This document shows positions 32,230-42,529 of a stretch of 64,000 bases of DNA, one piece after another; position 1 is the first letter of the stretch; each line of letters begins with the position of its first letter. The notes beneath the pieces are model-generated. The model searched no databases, was not told the DNA's origin, and saw nothing but the letters and a program-made list of their open reading frames with translations. A program made the position numbers and the translations under genes. Location: the NCBI GenBank assembly GCA_965208575.1, contig CBDBOV010000005.1:1056001-1120000 (forward strand). The letters are read 5' to 3'. Source of the DNA: Spirochaetia bacterium (lineage in GTDB: Bacteria > Spirochaetota > Spirochaetia > SZUA-6 > Bin103).

Positions 32230-33894
32230 TCAGGGAGCGCCGCCGCGCGCCGCCGCCACGGGCGGCTGCCACAGCACGTCGAGCGCCGCCGCCACGTGCA
32301 GCGATTCGCCGAACCACTCGGGAGTAGCGGTGTGCGGACCGATGCTGATGCCGGCCGCCGCCAGGCGCTCCACGGTCGGCGCCAGCGGCGGCCCGACACC
32401 CTCCCAGCGCGGCGCCGGTGGCACCGCCGGCAGCGGCTCGCCATTCGGCCGTAGGAACTGGAACCCCCCGGCGCCGTCAGCGACCACCTGAAACCCCTCC
32501 TCGTGGACCGCGCGGTGGTGGAATTTACACACAAGAACCAGGTTGGAGAGCTGCGTCTCCCCGCCGTCGGCCCAGTGCATGACGTGATGGGCGTCGCAAT
32601 GGCGGGACTCGCAGCCGGGGTACTGGCACTGGTTGCGATCCCTGCTCTGCAGGGCACGGCGCAGCGCGGTCGGGATGGTGCGGGTCCTGCGGCGTACGTC
32701 GAGCACCTCGCCGTCGGCGCCGTGGCGCAGCTCCACGAGGCCGGCATCGCAGGCGACGCGACGCGCTGCCTCCTTGCCGACGTATATGCCTCCTGCTTGT
32801 TCGATCACCGCCTGCCCGGCGTCGGGGCCAGGCATCGCGACCGCCAGGTCGCGGTCGGGCGTCGCCTCGGTGGCCGGTAGTTGCTCCGCGTGCTCGATCG
32901 ATACTTGCTCCGCCACCCCGTCCAGTAACGCTGCCGCCGGTGCGAAGGCTGCCTCGCTGCCCGGCGCAATTTCCGCGGAAACGTGCCGCGGGACCGCGGC
33001 GGCCTCGCGGCAGGAAAGCCCGTCAGCCTCCACGTGTACCGTCACCTGGAAGCGGTCGCCGCTGCTGCCCGGATCAAGCCCGCCGGCCAGCGCGCTCTCG
33101 GCCACCAGCCCCAGCGCATCCGCACGCCGCTGCGCGATGTTCGCCTCGTCGCCGCCGGCGGCATCCTCCTCCTCCGCCGCCGGCACCTGCTCCAGGGCCG
33201 CCTCCAGGGCCCGCAGCACTACCGCGCCTACCTCGGGCGTAAGCCGCGCCCGCAGCACCACCATGCCGTCCTCGTCCACCCGCGTGCTCAGCGTGCGCCG
33301 CGCGAGCCGCACCTGCTCCGCGTCCGGCTGCGCCTCCCGGTCCGCCTGCCGCCACCCCCGCACCAGCCGCTCCACCTGCGCCGCGGTGGCACAGCAGGCC
33401 ACGGCAATCAGCCGTGCCTCGTTGTCGGCGGTGGCCACTCGCGTCAGCGCGCGTACGATGGAGTAGGACAGCCGACCGCAGGCCATGGCCGCGGAGAGGT
33501 GGTTGAGATCGGCCAGCGCAGCGGCCACGCGCAGCTTCTCGCGGGCAGCGCCGAGGTCGAGGCCGGTGCGCCAGTTGAGCCAGTGGGCGCAGGAACGGAA
33601 GCCCTCCCAGCCGTGGTGGCGGTCGAACTCGCGCACGTAGCACAGCAACTCGTAGGTGGCGGCCTGGATGCGCGCCGACAGCTCGGCGATGCGGTTGCCG
33701 AGCTGATCCAGGTCGGGGGCTTCCTCCGGGGCCGGAGGCGCTGCGCTGTCGGCAACGGCGAGCGGCGCAGTCTCGCTCGCGCCGGGCGCCCTCGCAGCGG
33801 TGGTGGCCGCGGTCGCGGCTGGGCCGGTGGCTGCCGGTTCAGGCCGCGCTGACGGCGTCGGCGGGCGCGGCAGCGTATAGGTGTCAGGTGTCAT
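32230..33894 (-). CDS. DUF222 domain plus C-terminal HNH endonuclease (REP13E12-like)
   Basis: SCAHWLNWRTG, RRADAL, RRVACDA, RDRNQCQYPGC, DAHHVMHWADGGET and NLVLVCKFHH. Confidence 0.88.
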   Translation of the reverse strand: MTPDTYTLPRPPTPSARPEPAATGPAATAATTAARAPGASETAPLAVADSAAPPAPEEAPDLDQLGNRIAELSARIQAATYELLCYVREFDRHHGWEGFRSCAHWLNWRTGLDLGAAREKLRVAAALADLNHLSAAMACGRLSYSIVRALTRVATADNEARLIAVACCATAAQVERLVRGWRQADREAQPDAEQVRLARRTLSTRVDEDGMVVLRARLTPEVGAVVLRALEAALEQVPAAEEEDAAGGDEANIAQRRADALGLVAESALAGGLDPGSSGDRFQVTVHVEADGLSCREAAAVPRHVSAEIAPGSEAAFAPAAALLDGVAEQVSIEHAEQLPATEATPDRDLAVAMPGPDAGQAVIEQAGGIYVGKEAARRVACDAGLVELRHGADGEVLDVRRRTRTIPTALRRALQSRDRNQCQYPGCESRHCDAHHVMHWADGGETQLSNLVLVCKFHHRAVHEEGFQVVADGAGGFQFLRPNGEPLPAVPPAPRWEGVGPPLAPTVERLAAAGISIGPHTATPEWFGESLHVAAALDVLWQPPVAAARGGAP

Positions 33895-34412
33895 GCCGCC
33901 ATGGTACACCCGGTATTCGGTGGCCCCGTGCCGGCCCGTGGACGAGCCGCCCGTCCGATTTGGGCTTTGCGCGCCAGACCCGGACGCGGCGGGCCGAGAG
34001 CGCGCGCTGAGGGCGCCAAGGGGAGCGGAACAGGCGGGGTCGAGGACGTGGCGCAATCGCGCGCCCGAAACCATGTCAACCCCCTCAGGCCCGCAGCGAG
34101 CGATTTTCTCGACTTTTTTTCAGGCACTCGGCCCACGGCGAACCATTCGCTGACCGTAGGCTGGTCCGAAAAAGCCGGCTGGTGGGCGATGCTCGGGCAT
34201 CGGTTTTCATCGTCTTCCCTGTCACGGAGTGACCGTACAGGCTCACGTGAATCGTGGCATGAGAACCGCGGTTCAGGTGCAGGTCGCCAGAATCGATGGG
34301 GCGGCGACGAGGCGGTGCGTGACAGACCGCGGTTTCGTAGCGTGGGATAGTCCTGGCGTGACCCCGCTGCCCGGCTGACAGCGGCCGTCGTGGCCGCATA
34401 GAATCGCGTTCC

Positions 34413-35435
34413 ATGAGCACCGACCCGGCCCTGCTGCGGCTCGCCTTCGTCGGCTGCGGGCGCATCGCCGGCTTTCATCTCGACGGCATCGAGCAGGCTG
34501 CGCCGCGCACCCGCGTCACCGCGGCCGTCGATCCCGATCCGGACGCGGCCGCCGCGATCGCGGCGCGCACCGGGGCGCGCACGTTCGCTTCGTTGCAGCA
34601 AGCCCTCGGCGCCGGCGGCTTCGACGCGGTGGACATCATGGTGCCGCACGACCTGCACGAGGCGCTTGCGGTCGAGGCATTCGCCGCCGGCAAGCACGTG
34701 CTGCTGGAGAAGCCGATGGCGCTGACCCTGGACGCCTGCGAGCGCATCCAGCAGGCCGCCCGCCGCGCCGGCACCGTGTTCATGGTGGCGGAGAACTCGC
34801 AGTACTGGCCCGACGTGGTACGCGCCCGCGAACTGCTGGCCGGCGGCGCGATCGGCGAGGCGGTCACCGCACGCGCTTCGTTCGAAGCGCTGCACGATCC
34901 GTTCTGGTATCCGGAGGACTCCTGGCGCTATGAGTTGTCCCGCACCGGCGGCGGCGTGGTGGTGGACGGCGGCGCGCACTGGATCCGCCCGCTGCGCATG
35001 TGGCTCGGCGAACTGGACGAGGTGGTGGCCACCACGGCGCGGGTCCTGCCGGTGATGCAGGGCGAGTCGCTCGCTCACGCGCTGCTGCGCTTCCGCTCCG
35101 GCGTGGTGGCGAGCTTCCAGGCGATTACCCACGACGCGCCGTTGTGGGCGGGGCCGTGGTGGCGGCTCACCGGCACCGCGGGCGAGATCGTGATCCATGG
35201 CGGCTTCGACGGCGGCATGACGCTGGTCGACCGGCAGCACCCGCGCGGCCGCCCGATTGCCGGCGAGCACGGCTACGCGGCGTCGTTCGCCCCCGAGCTG
35301 GCGGATTTCGAAGCGGCGGTCCTGGATGGCAAGCCGCCGGAGGCGCCGCCCGAGGCATCGCTCGGCGAACTGCGCACGGCGCTGGCGATCTACCGCTCGG
35401 CGGCGTCAGGACGCTGGCAAAAGGTGTGGAGCTGA
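34413..35435 (+). CDS. Gfo/Idh/MocA oxidoreductase
   Basis: GCGRIA, PHDLH, LEKPMA and GGGVVVDGGAH. Confidence 0.9.
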   Translation: MSTDPALLRLAFVGCGRIAGFHLDGIEQAAPRTRVTAAVDPDPDAAAAIAARTGARTFASLQQALGAGGFDAVDIMVPHDLHEALAVEAFAAGKHVLLEKPMALTLDACERIQQAARRAGTVFMVAENSQYWPDVVRARELLAGGAIGEAVTARASFEALHDPFWYPEDSWRYELSRTGGGVVVDGGAHWIRPLRMWLGELDEVVATTARVLPVMQGESLAHALLRFRSGVVASFQAITHDAPLWAGPWWRLTGTAGEIVIHGGFDGGMTLVDRQHPRGRPIAGEHGYAASFAPELADFEAAVLDGKPPEAPPEASLGELRTALAIYRSAASGRWQKVWS

Positions 35436-35449
35436 ACGGAGGCTAAGGG

Positions 35450-35658
35450 GTAGGGAGCTCGCCGGACCTACAGAGCTCAAACTCGCCGCTCTCCCCGGCC
35501 TTCGGGAAGGGCGAGTCGGTGGTTCTCAGTGTGAACTTCTGTGGCCGCCTCAGTGAGCGGCCCTCATACTGTCCATCGGCCCAAGTTCCCCCTCAGGTGA
35601 CGTACTGTTCTGCAAGGTAGCTTCTCCGATCGGAGAGAGGTCCGGCGAAGCTCCCTAC
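35450..35658. ncRNA. Unidentified ~210-nt structured element (ncRNA or REPIN/MITE-like)
   Basis: 20/21-bp terminal inverted repeat (35450-35469 vs 35638-35658) enclosing several hairpins; intergenic between convergent genes. Confidence 0.45.
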
Positions 35659-35776
35659 TACCGACACGTTATCAGACCCCGCTCGTGCAATGCAAGGCGG
35701 CGGAACAGTTTTTTTCTGGTGCGGGATCGAAACGAGATGCGGATCCCGGGCACCGTGCCGTCCGCCGCGCCGGCGG

Positions 35777-38700
35777 TCAGTGCCGCAGCTTCAGGTCGAG
35801 CTTGAGCATCTGCTCGGGCCCGGCCGCGCCGCCCTCGCGGTGCTCGCCCGCGAGCTCGACGCCGAGATTCATGTGCTCCGCCTCGAACCGGGTCCCGAGC
35901 CGGAGCCGCCAGTCATCGTCGGCGAGCCCGGCCTCGGCGAACGGCGTCAGCAGCCCGTGCGAAGCCGCCCCGACCCCGTAGCCGATCCGCGCGTCGAGCG
36001 CGCCCGCATCCCCGGGCGGCGCCCCGGCCGCCGTCGGCAGCTCGTCGCGCCACAGCGCCTCCGCGCCGCCCGTGCCCGCGCCCCAGCGCGGGCTCAGCAT
36101 CAGCGACAGCCCGCGCCCGTGCGCCCCGGGCCCCATCCGCGCGGTCATGCTCAAGCCCCGCTCCTCCGCGCCCTCCTCCGAGTGCGCGGCGAGCCACCGC
36201 CCGCGCGCCTCGATGTGCAGCCGGGGCGCCTCGAGGCGCAGGCCCCCGGCCACCTCGAGGCCGGTCCCCTCGAGACCGTCGCCGCCGTCCTGGCGCCCCG
36301 CCGCCTCGACGAAGGGGGTGAGCGCGGTGTCGCCGTGCAGCGCGATGCGCCGCGACGCCTCCAGACCCAGGCGCGCCCGCCAACTGTCGGCGGTCAGCCC
36401 GTCGACGTAGTCCGGGCCGTCCTCGGTCACCATCCGCGCGATGCTCGCATCCGCCCGCACCGCGAGGTCGACCGTGGCCAGCGTGGGCAGCCCGTAGCGC
36501 ACGCCCGCCGACGCCATCCCCATCGTGAGGCCGCCGGTCTCCCACTCGCCGCCGTCCAGGCGATGCCGCGCCACGCCGCGCCCGGCGCCAAGCACGCCGC
36601 GCAGTTCAAGGCCGTCTGCAAGGGTCCAGCGCCCGTAGGGGTAGAGCGCCGTCAGCTCGGTCTCAAGACGGCCGTCTCCGGAACCCGCGGCGCCGTCGAA
36701 GCGGTAGTCCGTCTCGCCGGTGCCGTGGCTCACCGCAAGCCCCGCTACCCACGGCCCGACCCGCACGTCGATGCCGAGCCAGCCCGTGCGCAGCTCGCCC
36801 TCGTAGCGCATCCCCGCCTCCGGGCGGCCCGCGAACGCGCCCAGGTCGCCCCGGCCCCACACCGACCACAGCGGTGAAGGGGAGGAGATCCCCGACCCCT
36901 CCGCCGCGCCCAGCGTCAGCGAGAACGCGCTCGCGGGCAGCAGCTCCGACACCTCGCCGGTCCGGCTGCGCTCCGCCACCGGCGCGCAGCCGTCGCGCGC
37001 CGCGCCGCCGCCGACCGGCCCGAGCCGGTGGCCGCCGGCGGAACCCGGCGCGCAGGCCTGCTCCCTGGCCGCGAGCCCGGCGCCCGCGCCGGACACCTCG
37101 AACGGCACCGTCTCGCCCGCCAGCGTCAGCCCGCTCGCCGGCACCGAGGCCGCGAACCGCGCCCCGATGTTGCCAAGCGCGCTCGTCAGCACCTGGTGCG
37201 CCACCGCCGCCAGCGTGTGCCGCACCGCCCGCTTCACCTGCGCCGTGCGCGGGTCGATCACGGCAACCGCGAACGTCAGCACCGCCGCGTCCGCATCCGC
37301 CCGGTTGTCGTCCGCATCGTCGGCCCGCCAGGTGAAGACGTAGCGCCCCGCCGCCTCCGCCGCCGGCGTGCCCGACAGCGTCCGCGTCGCCGCGTCGACG
37401 GACAGGCCCGCAAGCCCCGCCGGATCGGAGGTCAGGGCGTAGGAGAGCGCCCCGTTGCCGCCCGTCGCCTCCGGCAGCACCACCGGCGCCATCGCCTCGC
37501 CCGGTACCAGAACCAGCGACGGCACCCGCGCCGCGCCGAAGGACGGCGCCAGGTCACGCACCGTCACCGTCACCCGGTCGCTGTCCGAAAGGCCCCCCGG
37601 GTCCGTCACCGTGAGCTGGAACTCCAGCGCGCCCGGCCGCTCCGGCGCCCTGAACGTGGTCCGCGCCGCAGTGGCGAAAAGGGTCACCGCCGCACCCGAG
37701 ACCCGGCTCCAGGCATACGTCAGCACCTCCCCGTCCGGGTCCGTGCTCCCCGTGCCGTCCAGCGTCACCGAAGCCCCGGGATCCACCGCGAGGTCGGCCC
37801 CGGCGTCGGCCACCGGCGATCCCGGCGGGGGCGCCGGCGTCTCGTTGGTCACCGTCCGCGTGAAGTCCGCCACCGCGTTGCCCGCGACGTCGCGCAGCCG
37901 GGTGTCGTGAGCCGCGGGCCGGGTGTAGCGCACCTCGACCGTCTCGCCGTGGGCCACCGCCGCCGGTAGCGTCAGCGTCACCTTCCCGGGCGTGACCCGG
38001 TTATCCACCTCGACCGCCGACGGGGTGACGCGGTCGCCGCCGCGCGCTCCATGCCCTTGTGCAGGACCTTGCACTCGATCACCCTCGACCGCCGACGGGG
38101 TGACGCGGTCGCCGCCGCCCACCATCACCTCGAACGCCGCCGGCGGCACCGCGCCGCCGGCCAGCCGCTCGTCGAAGACGATCGTGAGCGTCGCGCCGTC
38201 CACCGTCGGCGCGGCCGAAACCCGCGGCGGCGTCGTGTCACGAGGCTGGGGAGGTTGGGGAGGCTGCTGCGGCGTCCCCGCAATGCGCCAGTCCACCTTG
38301 TGGCCGGCGTCGTGGGCCAGTCCCGCATGCCCCAGAACCGCGTTCACGGTCCCGGCCCTGATCGTGCCGCCGTTCAGCGCCAGCGTGTTCTCGAGCACCG
38401 CGATGCCCACGGACGACCTGTTGGGGTCCACCACCGTGTGGGCGAAGGTCAGCACGGTCGAGCCGCTGCCGGACTCGTAGTTCGCCCGGATCTCGCCGTA
38501 GTTCGGGTCCATCTTGATCGTCAGGCGCGGCGTGCCGGTCACCGTCACCGCCTCGCTGAAGGTCACCTGCACCCGAATCTTCTCGGTCTGCCCGTAGGTC
38601 TCCGGCGTACCGCTGTCGTCCGTATCGAGCGAGGGCGTCGACCAGATGGCGACCCCGGTGACCGTCGGTGCGTTGTTGGACGCCGCCACCACGATGTCGA

Positions 38701-41700
38701 AGGTGTCGCTCACCGTGCCGCCGAAGCCGTCGCTCGCGGTCACCTTCACCGACAGCGTGCCGGCGTCGCCCGCCGCCGGCGTGCCCGAGAAGGCGCGGGT
38801 GCCCGCGGTGAAGCTCAGCCACGACGGCAGCGCGCTGTTGTCGGACTTGGTCGCGGTGTAGGTCAGGGTGTCGCCGGAGTCCGCGTCCGCGAAGGTGTTG
38901 GCCGGGAAGGCGTAGCTGAAGGCCGTGCCCGCCGCCGCCGTCTGGTCCGGGATGGCGTTCGCCACCGTGGGCGCGCTGTTGGACGCCTTCACCACAATGT
39001 TGAAGGTGTCGCTCACCGAAGCGAAGCCGTCGCTCGCGGTCACCTTCACCGACAGCGTGCCGGCGTCTGCCGACTGCGGCGTGCCCGAGAAGGTGCGGGT
39101 GCCCGCCGTGAAGGTCAGCCACGACGGCAGCGCGCCGCCGTCGGGCGTGGTCGGGGTGTAGGTCAGCGTGTCGCCGGTGTCGGTGTCCGCGAAGGTGTTG
39201 GCCGGGAAGGCGTAGCTGAAGGCCGTGCCCGCCACCGCGCCCCGGTCCGGGATGGCGTTCGCCACCGTCGGCGCGGTGTTGGACGCCTTCACCACGATGT
39301 CGAAGGTGTCGCTCACCGAAGCGAAGCCGTCGCTCGCGGTCACCTTCACCGACAGCGTGCCGGCGTTGGCCGACTGCGGCGTGCCCGAGAAGGTGCGGGT
39401 GCCCGGCGTGAAGGTCAGCCACACCGGCAGCGCGCTGCCGTCGAACTTGGTCGGGGTGTAGGTCAGCGTGTCGCCGGTGTCGGTGTCCGCGAAGGTGTTG
39501 GCCGGGAAGGCGTAGCTGAACGCCGTGCCCGCCACCGCCTTCCGGTCCGGGATGGCGTTCGCCACTGTCGGCGCGGTGTTGGACGCCTTCACCACGATGT
39601 CGAAGGTGTCGCTCACCGACGCCGTGCCGTCGCTCGCGGTCACCTTCACCGGCAGCGTGCCGGCGTTGGCCGTCTGCGGCGTGCCCGAGAAGGTGCGGGT
39701 GCTCGCGGTGAAGGTCAGCCACGACGGCAGCGCCGTGCCGTCGGACTTGGTCGCGCTGTAGACCAGGGTGTCGCCGGTGTCCTTGTCCGCGAAGGTGTTG
39801 GCCGGGAAGGCGTAGCTGAACGCCGTGCCCGCCACCGCCGCCTGGTCCGGGACGGCGTTCGCCACCGTCGGCGCGTTGTTGGACGTCTTCACCACGATGT
39901 CGAAGGTGTCGCTTACCGAAGCCTTGCCGTCGCTCGCGGTCACCTTCACCGACAGCGTGCCGATGTTCGCCGACTGCGGCGTGCCCGAGAAGGTGCGGGT
40001 GCCCGCGGTGAAGGTCAGCCACGACGGCAGCGCCGTGCCGTCGGACTTGGTCGCGGTGTAGGTCAGCGTGTCGCCGGAGTCCGCGTCCGCGAAGGTGTCG
40101 GCCGGGAAGGCGTAGCTGAACGCCGTGCCCGCCACCGCGACCCGGTCCGGGATGGCGTTCGCCACCGTGGGCGCGACGTTGACGGTGCGGATGTGCTTCC
40201 AGACCGACGGTGCGACACCGGTGGTATGCTTGATTCGCACCCAGTAGTCCGTGTTGACGGTCAGGCCGGTGAATGTGTGCTTCACATTATTGGTCCAGCC
40301 CGTCTCCGTGACCGTACTCGAGCCCGACGTGCAAAGCTCAAACCGGAAAGATGATAACCCCTGACGGATGTACGACACCGCGATGGTCGTAGCCGTCGAG
40401 ATCAAAGAGAAATGCTCCGCCCGGACATGGGGGGAGCTCGAGGCCGCGCAGGGCACGGACGTCCTCACCACGATGTCGAAGGTGTCGCTCACCGACGCCG
40501 TGCCGTCGCTCGCGGTCACCTTCACCGACAGCGTGCCGACGTTCGCCGTCTGCGGCGTGCCCGAGAAGGTGCGGGTGCCCGCGGTGAAGGTCAGCCACGA
40601 CGGCAGCGCGTTGCCGTCGGACTTGGTCGCGGTGTAGCCCAGGGTGTCGCCGGAGTCCGCGTCCGCGAAGGTGTTGGCCGGGAAGGCGTAGCTGAACGCC
40701 GTGCCCGCCTCCGCCGCCTGGTCCGGGATGGCGTTCGCCACCGTCGGCGCGTTGTTGGACGCCTTCACCACGATGTCGAAGGTGTCGCTTACCGAAGCCG
40801 TGCCGTCGCTCGCGGTCACCTTCACCGACAGCGTGCCGATGTTCGCCGACTGCGGCGTGCCCGAGAAGGTGCGGGTGCCCGCGGTGAAGGTCAGCCACGA
40901 CGGCAGCGCCGTGCCGTCGGACTTGGTCGTGGTGTAGGTCAGGGTGTCGCCGGAGTCGGTGTCCGCGAAGGTGTCGGCCGGGAAGGCGTAGCTGAACGCC
41001 GTGCCCGCCACCGCGACCCGGTCCGGGATGGCGTTCGCCACCGTGGGTGCGGCGTTGGCGGTGCGGATGTGCTGCCAGAGCGACGTGCCGCCATGAAAGA
41101 TTCGCACCCAGTGGTCCGTGTCGACGGTCAGGCCGGTGAATGTGTGCGTCGGATTGCGGCCGAGTGTCGTCGACGTGACCGTACTCGAGCCCGACGTGCA
41201 AAGCTCAAACCGGAAAGCGGTGGGCCCCTGAGAGATGTACGTCACCGTGATGGTCGTAGCCGTCGAGGTCGCCGAGAAGTGCTCCCTCTGGACATCGGGG
41301 TTGTTCTTGGCCGTGCAGGGCGGGGTCGGCTCGACGAAGATGTCGAAGGTGTCGCTCACCGACGCGATGCCGTCGCTCGCGGTCACCTTCACCGATACCG
41401 TGCCGACGTTCGCCGTCTGCGGCGTACCCGAGAAGGTGCGGGTGCTCGGCGTGAAGGTCAGCCACGACGGCAGCGCCGTGCCGTCGGACTTGGTCGCGGT
41501 GTAGCCCAGGGTGTCGCCGGAGTCGGTGTCCGCGAAGGTGTTGGCAGGGAAGGCGAAGCTGAAGGCCGTGCCCGTGTCCGCATCCTGGTCCGGGATGGCG
41601 TTCGCCACCGTGGGCGCGTTGTTGGACGACTTCACCACGATGTCGAAGGTGTCGCTCTTCACATCGACGCCGTACAACGCGGTCACCTTCACCGACAGCC

Positions 41701-42529
41701 TGCCGACGTTCCCCGGCCCCGGCGTACCCGAGAAGGTGCGGGTGCCCGGCGTGAAGGTCAGCCACGACGGCAGCGCCGTGTTGTTGGGCTTGGTGGCTTT
41801 GTATTTCAGCGTTTGGCCGGAGGCCGCGACCGCGAACGTGCTGGCCGGGAAGGCGTAGCTGAACGCCGTGCCCGCCAGCGCCGCCCGGTCCGGGATGGCG
41901 TTCGCCAACGTGGGCCTGACTCTGGCGTAGCCGAGGACCTCCATCTTGATGGACGCGCCGCCGCTTTCGCTGCCTGCCATTTTGCCAGTATTCCCAATGC
42001 TCCAGCCCGCGGCGCCGCCGCTGTCCTCGTTGTCGCTCTGGGTTGCGTCAACACGGACCTTGGCGCCGAAGAGCTGCACCCAGTACGTCGTGTTGGGACT
42101 CAGTGAGCCGCTCCCGACGAACAGTGCGTTCTGAAAGGAACCGGACAGGGCCGGACTCCGCGGCGTGGTAATGAGGGTGCCGGCGCGGCCCCCCTGGCGT
42201 ATCGTCATATCGTAAGAGCCGGGGGAACTAGTTGCCCGCTTGGCTACGAGCTTCACGCCCCGCAATACATAGCCCAAGGCGTTGCTGCCGGTCGTGAACG
42301 ACGTGTCCGTGCTAGCGAAAGTGATGTTGCCGTCGCCCCACGACGTCTGGCCGAGGTTGGAGACCAGCTTGGCCGTGGTCTGCGCCTCGGCGGTGTGCGC
42401 GCCCGGCAGCAGGAACAGCGCCGCCGCGAGCAGGCACACGCCCAGCGGCGCGAGGCGGGCGAGGCCGGGAGGCCGGAGTCGGGAAAGAAAGCGGGGAGGC
42501 GATGCGGAAAGAATGGACGGGGCCGTCAC
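35777..42529 (-). CDS. Giant autotransporter-like surface protein: signal peptide, nine putative Ig/cadherin-like repeats, two FN3-like inserts, SwmB-like and PKD-like domains, C-terminal beta-barrel
   Basis: AEA-Q signal cleavage; PTVANAIPD...LPSWLTF...TRTFSGTP repeats; ADAGADLAV-VTLDG PKD motif; WSVWGRG-type autotransporter barrel. Confidence 0.85.
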   Translation of the reverse strand: MTAPSILSASPPRFLSRLRPPGLARLAPLGVCLLAAALFLLPGAHTAEAQTTAKLVSNLGQTSWGDGNITFASTDTSFTTGSNALGYVLRGVKLVAKRATSSPGSYDMTIRQGGRAGTLITTPRSPALSGSFQNALFVGSGSLSPNTTYWVQLFGAKVRVDATQSDNEDSGGAAGWSIGNTGKMAGSESGGASIKMEVLGYARVRPTLANAIPDRAALAGTAFSYAFPASTFAVAASGQTLKYKATKPNNTALPSWLTFTPGTRTFSGTPGPGNVGRLSVKVTALYGVDVKSDTFDIVVKSSNNAPTVANAIPDQDADTGTAFSFAFPANTFADTDSGDTLGYTATKSDGTALPSWLTFTPSTRTFSGTPQTANVGTVSVKVTASDGIASVSDTFDIFVEPTPPCTAKNNPDVQREHFSATSTATTITVTYISQGPTAFRFELCTSGSSTVTSTTLGRNPTHTFTGLTVDTDHWVRIFHGGTSLWQHIRTANAAPTVANAIPDRVAVAGTAFSYAFPADTFADTDSGDTLTYTTTKSDGTALPSWLTFTAGTRTFSGTPQSANIGTLSVKVTASDGTASVSDTFDIVVKASNNAPTVANAIPDQAAEAGTAFSYAFPANTFADADSGDTLGYTATKSDGNALPSWLTFTAGTRTFSGTPQTANVGTLSVKVTASDGTASVSDTFDIVVRTSVPCAASSSPHVRAEHFSLISTATTIAVSYIRQGLSSFRFELCTSGSSTVTETGWTNNVKHTFTGLTVNTDYWVRIKHTTGVAPSVWKHIRTVNVAPTVANAIPDRVAVAGTAFSYAFPADTFADADSGDTLTYTATKSDGTALPSWLTFTAGTRTFSGTPQSANIGTLSVKVTASDGKASVSDTFDIVVKTSNNAPTVANAVPDQAAVAGTAFSYAFPANTFADKDTGDTLVYSATKSDGTALPSWLTFTASTRTFSGTPQTANAGTLPVKVTASDGTASVSDTFDIVVKASNTAPTVANAIPDRKAVAGTAFSYAFPANTFADTDTGDTLTYTPTKFDGSALPVWLTFTPGTRTFSGTPQSANAGTLSVKVTASDGFASVSDTFDIVVKASNTAPTVANAIPDRGAVAGTAFSYAFPANTFADTDTGDTLTYTPTTPDGGALPSWLTFTAGTRTFSGTPQSADAGTLSVKVTASDGFASVSDTFNIVVKASNSAPTVANAIPDQTAAAGTAFSYAFPANTFADADSGDTLTYTATKSDNSALPSWLSFTAGTRAFSGTPAAGDAGTLSVKVTASDGFGGTVSDTFDIVVAASNNAPTVTGVAIWSTPSLDTDDSGTPETYGQTEKIRVQVTFSEAVTVTGTPRLTIKMDPNYGEIRANYESGSGSTVLTFAHTVVDPNRSSVGIAVLENTLALNGGTIRAGTVNAVLGHAGLAHDAGHKVDWRIAGTPQQPPQPPQPRDTTPPRVSAAPTVDGATLTIVFDERLAGGAVPPAAFEVMVGGGDRVTPSAVEGDRVQGPAQGHGARGGDRVTPSAVEVDNRVTPGKVTLTLPAAVAHGETVEVRYTRPAAHDTRLRDVAGNAVADFTRTVTNETPAPPPGSPVADAGADLAVDPGASVTLDGTGSTDPDGEVLTYAWSRVSGAAVTLFATAARTTFRAPERPGALEFQLTVTDPGGLSDSDRVTVTVRDLAPSFGAARVPSLVLVPGEAMAPVVLPEATGGNGALSYALTSDPAGLAGLSVDAATRTLSGTPAAEAAGRYVFTWRADDADDNRADADAAVLTFAVAVIDPRTAQVKRAVRHTLAAVAHQVLTSALGNIGARFAASVPASGLTLAGETVPFEVSGAGAGLAAREQACAPGSAGGHRLGPVGGGAARDGCAPVAERSRTGEVSELLPASAFSLTLGAAEGSGISSPSPLWSVWGRGDLGAFAGRPEAGMRYEGELRTGWLGIDVRVGPWVAGLAVSHGTGETDYRFDGAAGSGDGRLETELTALYPYGRWTLADGLELRGVLGAGRGVARHRLDGGEWETGGLTMGMASAGVRYGLPTLATVDLAVRADASIARMVTEDGPDYVDGLTADSWRARLGLEASRRIALHGDTALTPFVEAAGRQDGGDGLEGTGLEVAGGLRLEAPRLHIEARGRWLAAHSEEGAEERGLSMTARMGPGAHGRGLSLMLSPRWGAGTGGAEALWRDELPTAAGAPPGDAGALDARIGYGVGAASHGLLTPFAEAGLADDDWRLRLGTRFEAEHMNLGVELAGEHREGGAAGPEQMLKLDLKLRH
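38690..41915 (-). repeat. Intragenic ~300-bp tandem repeats (9 copies, arranged 2 + FN3 + 2 + FN3 + 5)
   Basis: Near-identical nucleotide units recurring every 300 bp (e.g. 38925, 39225, 39525, 39825). Confidence 0.92.

Follow-up and report, generated by a model that had tools for sequence, protein, structure and literature searches.

Evidence for a clade-restricted, structured small RNA gene in a family of uncultured, sponge- and reef-linked Spirochaetia

In a stretch of 64,000 nucleotides (nt) from a Spirochaetia bacterium (GenBank assembly GCA_965208575.1, contig CBDBOV010000005.1, positions 1,056,001 to 1,120,000; hereafter the window, to which all coordinates refer) we found an element that is very probably the gene for a single-copy, stand-alone and highly structured small RNA (sRNA) of about 215 nt, encoded on the minus strand and representing a clade-restricted family that was not catalogued before. 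The element lies within a 341-nt gap between two open reading frames (ORFs), a GFO/IDH/MocA oxidoreductase on the plus strand (34413-35435) and an Ig-repeat (He_PIG) protein of 2250 amino acids (aa) on the minus strand (35777-42529). It shows the general properties of a stand-alone structured sRNA, i.e. an own promoter, a covarying fold and non-coding conservation. Among several options, the original prediction from the nucleotide sequence had considered a novel stand-alone non-coding RNA (ncRNA), transcribed from its own minus-strand promoter with a start near 35659. This option is supported by covariation, by the asymmetry of G.U pairs between the strands, by promoter conservation and by element-sized contigs in RNA libraries.

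Fold, strand and promoter of the element

Two complementary strands, GTAGGGAGCTCGCCGGACCT (35450-35469) and AGGTCCGGCGAAGCTCCCTAC (35638-35658), form the closing stem P1 with 20 pairs and one extra base, which bears out the terminal stem with a single bulge that had been proposed. Either strand of the element, folded as RNA, reached a folding energy of about -110 kcal/mol (z = -5.10 and -5.16 for the two strands), and none of 200 dinucleotide shuffles was equally stable. P1 escaped an inverted-repeat finder, whose ungapped extension stops at the bulge. Searches with the covariance models of Rfam 15 (4227 families) gave no match at gathering level in the window, in agreement with the earlier statement that the element could not be matched by eye to transfer RNA (tRNA), transfer-messenger RNA (tmRNA), RNase P RNA, signal recognition particle (SRP) RNA or common riboswitches. 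In E-value mode the region 35300-35900 yielded one chance match (COG2908, 17.4 bits with a threshold of 58.7), which lies inside the neighbouring ORF. ARAGORN detected no tRNA or tmRNA in 35000-36000; SRP RNA, RNase P RNA and tmRNA were each found above threshold elsewhere in the host genome.

Covariation was counted on a model-guided alignment of 19 sequences with 32 pairs, corresponding to 608 cells. Standard pairs occupied 96.9% of these cells, and both sides had changed at nine of the 32 pairs, compared to 5.2 +/- 0.9 in column shuffles, none of which reached nine in 500 trials. When the 3' partners were slid by 1-3 columns as a control, 30-45% of the cells were paired and 0-2 pairs were doubly changed. 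Seven of the doubly changed pairs belong to P1 (7/19 pairs; 96.5% and 98.4% of cells paired in its helices 1 and 2) and two to the hairpin P4. The long-range helix P3 (35579-35584 with 35471-35476) was paired in 93.9% of cells with zero double changes; it encloses a junction that carries the hairpins P4 and P5.

The internal stems named in the original prediction fared differently. ACTCGCC (35481-35487) and GGCGAGT (35510-35516) do pair, with 42/49 cells paired in the genus, and so do GGCCGC and GCGGCC (35543-35562), where compensatory changes were seen; CTCCGATCGGAG (35624-35635) is present and conserved as well. A further stem between GAACTT (35533-35538) and AAGTTC (35583-35588) exists in the host genome, its conservation being unproven: the duplex energy between these segments (end of J2/3 and start of J4/5) was -4.7 for own pairs, whereas cross-pairs gave -3.5 and shuffles -3.3 +/- 2.0, in a calculation that used sister-genus segments trimmed to 5 nt. 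The proposed pairing of CAGAGC (35471-35476) with GTTCTG (35607-35612) had to be abandoned, as it contains an A.C mismatch on the RNA strand and GCUCUG pairs instead with UUGGGC (35579-35584) in all relatives.

The assignment to the minus strand follows from the wobble pairs. Summed over P1, P3 and P4, this strand has 41 G.U versus 3 A.C cells, and P5 adds 11 versus 2 (52 versus 5 over all helices). The RNA is thus the minus strand, since the G.U pairs would be mismatches if the opposite strand were read. The promoter motifs of the original prediction were all located where it had placed them, TTGCAT at 35695-35690, TAACGT at 35671-35666 with a spacer of 18 nt between the two, and TG at 35674-35673. 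The layout was found in 7/7 genomes of the genus in the form TTGCNN (TTGTCA in one), 17-18 nt and TGnTAnnAT (TAACGT in the host element). The -10 box places the predicted start, in either genus, on the first base pair of P1 or a single base ahead of it. A generic promoter and terminator scan of the region gave 0 sites and no canonical terminator, the hexamers escaping it because each matches the E. coli consensus at 3/6 positions. The GC-rich P1 together with the pyrimidine-rich tail that follows it may serve as terminator.

Six metatranscriptome runs contained sequence words of the stretch, as did metagenome runs from sponges, coral reefs and marine samples. All four metatranscriptome runs that were compared, from three studies, contained contigs made of the element alone with 95-99% identity. 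These included contigs of 241 nt (on 35432-35667), 210 nt (on 35432-35640) and 236 nt (on 35447-35640, depth 109, with adapter at both ends), as well as several short ones within 35447-35638. The four runs had no contig over the flanking genes within 35250-35950, a missing cover that is not evidence. The element-sized contigs hint at a discrete and fairly abundant RNA.

The features of the locus, all on the minus strand, are as follows:

35709-35715, minus strand: A-tract upstream of the -35 box, a possible UP element with putative function; a similar A-run occurs in 4/7 genus genomes and in the two sister-genus genomes shown
35690-35695, minus strand: -35-like box TTGCAT; TTGCAT, TTGCAA, TTGCCA or TTGTCA at this place in 7/7 genus genomes, 17-18 nt from the -10 box
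35666-35674, minus strand: extended -10 box TGaTAACGT; TGnTAnnAT in 7/7 genus genomes; the sister genus has GATACT or GACACT at the corresponding position
35432-35661, minus strand: predicted transcript of about 215-230 nt; start predicted near 35659 from the -10 box, 3' end probably between 35447 and 35432
35638-35658, minus strand: P1 5' strand GUAGGGAGCUUCGCCGGACCU with one bulged U; from the fold and the 19-sequence alignment
35450-35469, minus strand: P1 3' strand, on the same basis
35623-35636, minus strand: P2 hairpin UCUCC-GAUC-GGAGA; invariant in the genus, CCUY...GAGG there in the sister genus
35588-35592, minus strand: conserved purine motif GGGGG just 5' of P3; GGAGG in the sister genus
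35579-35584, minus strand: P3 5' strand UUGGGC, partner 35471-35476; 93.9% of cells paired in 19 sequences
35471-35476, minus strand: P3 3' strand GCUCUG; from the 19-sequence alignment
35570-35578, minus strand: conserved unpaired junction CGAUGGACA; GCCGAUGGAC invariant in 18/19 sequences from both genera
35543-35562, minus strand: P4 hairpin GGCCGCU-CACUGA-GGCGGCC; 7 pairs, 2 of them changed on both sides, 97.7% of cells paired
35481-35516, minus strand: P5 hairpin with outer ACUCGCC/GGCGAGU and inner UUCCCG/CGGGGA; outer 42/49 and inner 39/42 cells paired in the genus
35432-35449, minus strand: pyrimidine-rich 3' tail CCCUUAGCCUCCGUUCAG; a C/U-rich run follows P1 in 14/14 sequences shown

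Between P3 and P4, the single sequence that departs from the GCCGAUGGAC run reads GCCAAUGGAC. P5 takes the form of a 9-bp hairpin in the sister genus, where 102/108 cells were paired and an A-U to G-C swap was seen in 2/12 sequences. For P2 no compensatory change was seen within the genus, and its 5' strand has an alternative partner in the GGRGG purine motif, both pairings fitting all sequences. The purine motif is complementary not only to the P2 5' strand but also to the pyrimidine-rich 3' tail and to the 3' end of the organism's own 16S rRNA, CACCUCCUUU; the tail varies within the genus. A minus-strand copy of the 16S rRNA gene (G000:C6, ~1289667) ends in GGAUCACCUCCUUU. Sister-genus RNAs carry CACCUC in P2 and a 3' tail of CUCCUUUCU or CUCCUUCCU. 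With CACCUC in P2 and the CUCCUUUCU ending, the RNA therefore holds runs that resemble both the Shine-Dalgarno (SD) sequence and its complement (anti-SD). The SD-like run followed by a conserved AUG (35570-35592) could represent a mini-ORF, a decoy ribosome site or conservation at the RNA level.

Distribution and genomic neighbourhood

The host genome of 6.5 Mb contains one copy of the element. BLASTN, which the original prediction had suggested for copy number and homologues, recovered full-length relatives with 72-93% identity in six of the ten other genomes of the genus. A covariance model built from seven genus sequences (R1) extended this to full-length, far more divergent copies in seven sister-genus genomes. 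With a second model of 14 sequences that was limited to the cleanly aligning helices (R2), one copy each was found in 18 of the 23 other genomes of the family (6/10 in the genus, 12/13 in the sister genus) and none in 68 genomes from seven other families of the order. When R2 was run on a sample of the class, matches were obtained in 4/151 genomes, every one from the RNA's own family.

A wider search, with one genome for each of 185,579 species, used a degenerate pattern that covered both the invariant junction and the 3' strands. It returned 47 stretches, nine of which were true by R2 and came without exception from metagenome-assembled genomes named 'Spirochaetia bacterium'. The other 38 had no full-length match (L117 showed only a hairpin match of 58 nt and 35 bits). 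The corresponding metagenome scan returned 39 stretches with one true copy, whose bit score of 182.4 is the same as that of the copy in genome G007. As far as the searched collections show, the RNA is limited to one family, with two genera, of uncultured Spirochaetia linked to sponges and reefs.

The neighbours of the RNA vary between and within the two genera. Genus genomes have a convergent oxidoreductase and either an Ig-repeat protein or UxuA, and sister-genus genomes have an SDR protein, a small Zn-ribbon ORF, an amidase, a DNA methylase or an NHL-repeat protein. Since the neighbours differ between genomes, a role in cis for one of them is unlikely.

In the window itself, the 2250-aa ORF encodes ten He_PIG Ig-like repeats together with Big_9, PKD and SWM repeats. 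Between its end and the RNA promoter downstream of it lie 100 nt, and in the relatives examined it is not found beside the RNA. An HNH/DUF222 ORF (614 aa, 32230-34074, minus strand) shares the strand of the RNA at a distance of 1.4 kb, with the opposite-strand oxidoreductase in between; a link between this ORF and the RNA is unsupported. Most sister-genus genomes (L042, L045, L051, L052 and others) encode a same-strand frame of about 100 codons, starting with MPAYDYHC, some 25-45 nt downstream of the RNA. It has a weak match to Zn_ribbon_8 (21.4 bits, cut-off 34.4) and a TTGAC-like box of its own between frame and RNA.

Possible modes of action and alternatives

Based on these features we propose a mode of action in which transcription would begin at the edge of the 20-bp stem, driven by a sigma-70-type promoter (TTGCAT, 18 nt, TGaTAACGT). 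This stem would join the 5' and 3' ends and, with the pyrimidine-rich tail, probably end the transcript and protect both of its ends. The hairpins P2, P4 and P5 and the long-range P3 would hold the invariant run GCCGAUGGAC unpaired. The RNA would act in trans, because its gene is single-copy and has different neighbours in the two genera. We tentatively read it as a folded, protein-binding regulatory RNA rather than a linear-seed sRNA, a view we hold with somewhat less than even confidence. RNA polymerase is the leading candidate partner, although a doubtful one; it is suggested by analogy because 6S RNA is undetectable in the family and lineage-specific RNAs that bind RNA polymerase are known from 6S-less bacteria. 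That the element might represent a new class of polymerase-binding regulator, replacing 6S in one sponge-associated spirochaete family with a fold unrelated to the open-promoter mimic, is a further step by analogy that we regard as improbable.

Results for 6S RNA itself bear on this proposal. Using Rfam model RF00013 (gathering threshold 46.4 bits) we found no 6S in the window, and none at E<=10 on 35300-35900 or in the whole host genome; of the near-universal small RNAs, 6S alone was not found there. Across the order, 6S was detected in 17/21 and 5/5 genomes of two sister families and in 0/23 other genomes of the RNA's own family. In the two positive families it is encoded directly after zapA. 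The host zapA locus (G000:C4:1038759-1039028; L065 1483-1980) has a spacer of about 100 nt to the next ORF, and no RNA match was found in this spacer. A model built from 12 6S RNAs of the two sister families (R3) found nothing real in 24 genomes of the RNA's family, and on 35380-35720 with filters off it gave at most 3.8 bits from local hairpins. The order's 6S RNAs share a set of invariant motifs, all of which are missing from the element. It is not a 6S homologue, and the divergent 6S RNA that had been among the original options is thereby dismissed on score and on shape. A very divergent true homologue, relocated from the zapA locus, would share the similar length, the long end-closing stem, the presence in RNA libraries and a family with no other detectable 6S. 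In view of the missing matches, the lacking motifs and the different topology, we consider it very unlikely. A role similar to that of 6S could still apply to the element.

Other functions have to be weighed against protein binding. As a base-pairing sRNA, the element would use GCCGAUGGAC or its C/U-rich stretches (CUCUCC in P2, the 3' tail) to pair with mRNAs, for instance at purine-rich ribosome-binding sites, and alter their translation or stability. The own promoter, the terminator-like end, the likely action in trans, the invariant single-stranded 10-mer and the resemblance of the C/U-rich tail to the organism's 16S 3' end are consistent with such a role. Five conserved helices with their junctions, however, go far beyond the needs of a seed-type sRNA, the C/U tail is variable in the genus, and a gene for Hfq was not found. 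No target was identified; a genome scan with junction-complementary 9-mers returned 566 sites and was uninformative. We regard base pairing as rather unlikely. Alternatively, the RNA might do another structured job as part of a ribonucleoprotein, as a scaffold or decoy (e.g. for ribosome-related factors, given its SD-like GGAGG and anti-SD-like runs) or as a ribozyme. Several helices and conserved junction bases suggest a defined tertiary fold, the GGRGG motif and the complementary pyrimidine runs are conserved in both genera, and no known family was matched. On the other hand, no partner gene is conserved alongside, signs of a known ribozyme or ribonucleoprotein were not found and nothing speaks positively for a specific activity; we judge this possibility to be of low probability, too.

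Two further explanations are highly improbable. The terminal inverted repeats, and the HNH/DUF222 gene 1.4 kb away in the window, would fit a cis element or the RNA of a mobile element, such as a terminator or attenuator, a retron msr-msd, an IS110 bridge RNA, an omega RNA, a REPIN or a miniature inverted-repeat transposable element (MITE). This is largely refuted by the single copy, the variable neighbours and the conserved own promoter, and in the genus the following gene is convergent. The REPIN/MITE option of the original prediction falls because there is one copy per genome in the host and in every positive relative. Its orphan retron or bridge-RNA option lacks support: no gene for a reverse transcriptase, IS110, TnpB/IscB or RAYT was present within ~1.5 kb at the loci examined, and with the defining partner genes missing from the flanks, retron, bridge-RNA and omega-RNA readings are unsupported. 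Conservation due to a small protein, or by chance or neutrally, is hardly to be expected either. There is a frame from a conserved AUG in GAUGGAC, 10-11 nt after GGRGG, with eight codons in 5/7 genus genomes and three (M-D-R-stop) in the sister-genus genomes read. Neither length nor sequence of this frame is kept between the genera, though, and the difference of eight versus three codons means that coding does not explain the conservation. Furthermore, helix changes are compensatory, indels do not come in threes, and there is no minus-strand ORF of at least 40 aa in 35436-35776.

Some known regulatory classes were rejected from the gene content of the host. Genes for CsrA (PF02599), Ro/TROVE (PF05731) and Hfq were not found in its genome, which is 95% complete. 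A sponge of the CsrB/RsmZ type was rejected for the missing CsrA and because there is no GGA in the loops, these being GAUC, CACUGA and AAGGC. A Y RNA was rejected since neither Ro/TROVE nor an Rfam match was found, and an Hfq-dependent sRNA since the Hfq gene was not found.

Several observations weigh against the proposed polymerase-binding RNA or against parts of the evidence for the sRNA gene. No Rfam 6S was found in 42 genomes from five further families of the order, so that the missing 6S is not specific to the RNA's family. In the consensus folds, the strand between P1 and P3 measures about 60 nt on the 5' side versus 1-4 nt on the 3' side; this asymmetry leaves no two-sided central bubble and makes the shape un-6S-like. 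G009 and G010, both complete single-contig genomes of the genus, contain neither a copy according to R2 nor a 6S match, which makes the RNA dispensable in them. The oxidoreductase next to the RNA is retained in G009 (87% identity) with a different sequence after it, and at this syntenic locus the model with filters off gave at best 11.2 bits for a short hairpin. Independent covariation events are few because most compensatory changes separate the two genera, and P3 and P2 are without any. Measured against the E. coli consensus, both promoter hexamers are weak, and the scan did not flag them. Assembled contigs prove neither transcription nor strand, ends or level, and DNA may occur in RNA libraries. 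One contig (run X8) extends to 35667 and so overshoots the predicted start by 8 nt on the upstream side. Part of the transcripts may have an earlier start, or the position given to the -10 box may be slightly wrong. At 95% completeness, genes for CsrA, Hfq or Ro could also have escaped detection.

The element adds an RNA family with fold, strand, promoter and distribution to the uncultured symbionts of sponges and coral reefs. It also marks a spirochaete family in which the near-universal 6S cannot be found, next to two sister families that keep 6S after zapA. Should the RNA bind RNA polymerase, bacteria would have replaced 6S with unrelated RNAs on more than one occasion; after Ms1 and CoRP, the element would then be the third such case to arise independently and the first from beyond the actinobacteria. 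Should it not, it would be one more orphan structured RNA, with junctions that call for a biochemical explanation. The immediate impact is limited by the narrow distribution and by the lack of a culturable host.

Comparison with known RNAs

In the literature on sponge spirochaete symbionts and non-coding RNA, a weak search confined to titles and abstract openings brought up no bacterial ncRNA from this group among the papers listed. Among the known RNAs, Y RNA and YrlA share with the element a long stem formed from its two ends, and the element's stem contains a GGUCCG run. This GGUCCG is not conserved in the sister genus, and bacterial Y RNAs have about half the length of the element. Orphan structured ncRNA classes such as raiA are known in bacteria from comparative genomics. 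The element is similar to them in its multi-helix fold with covariation, its conserved junction bases and its own transcription unit, but its spread is far narrower, being confined to a single family of uncultured Spirochaetia.

With 6S RNA the element has in common that it is single-copy, stand-alone, about 200 nt long, closed by a long stem that joins its ends, and present in RNA libraries. The setting is alike too, as its family has no detectable 6S and two sister families have one. In contrast to 6S, it has no sequence or structure match and no two-sided bubble, does not lie beside zapA, and is absent from two complete genomes of its own genus.

A different comparison is offered by Ms1 of mycobacteria, an RNA of about 300 nt, and CoRP of Corynebacterium. 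These are described as unrelated clade-specific RNAs (PMC11077062, PMC4191392) that bind RNA polymerase in 6S-less actinobacteria, with binding shown by RNA immunoprecipitation sequencing (RIP-seq) and pull-down; a length of 516 nt is given for CoRP (PMC11077062). Both differ from the element in being longer and actinobacterial and in their demonstrated binding, and the likeness is one of proposed function. As with Ms1 and CoRP, the element is a clade-restricted, structured and stand-alone RNA of a lineage in which no 6S was found.

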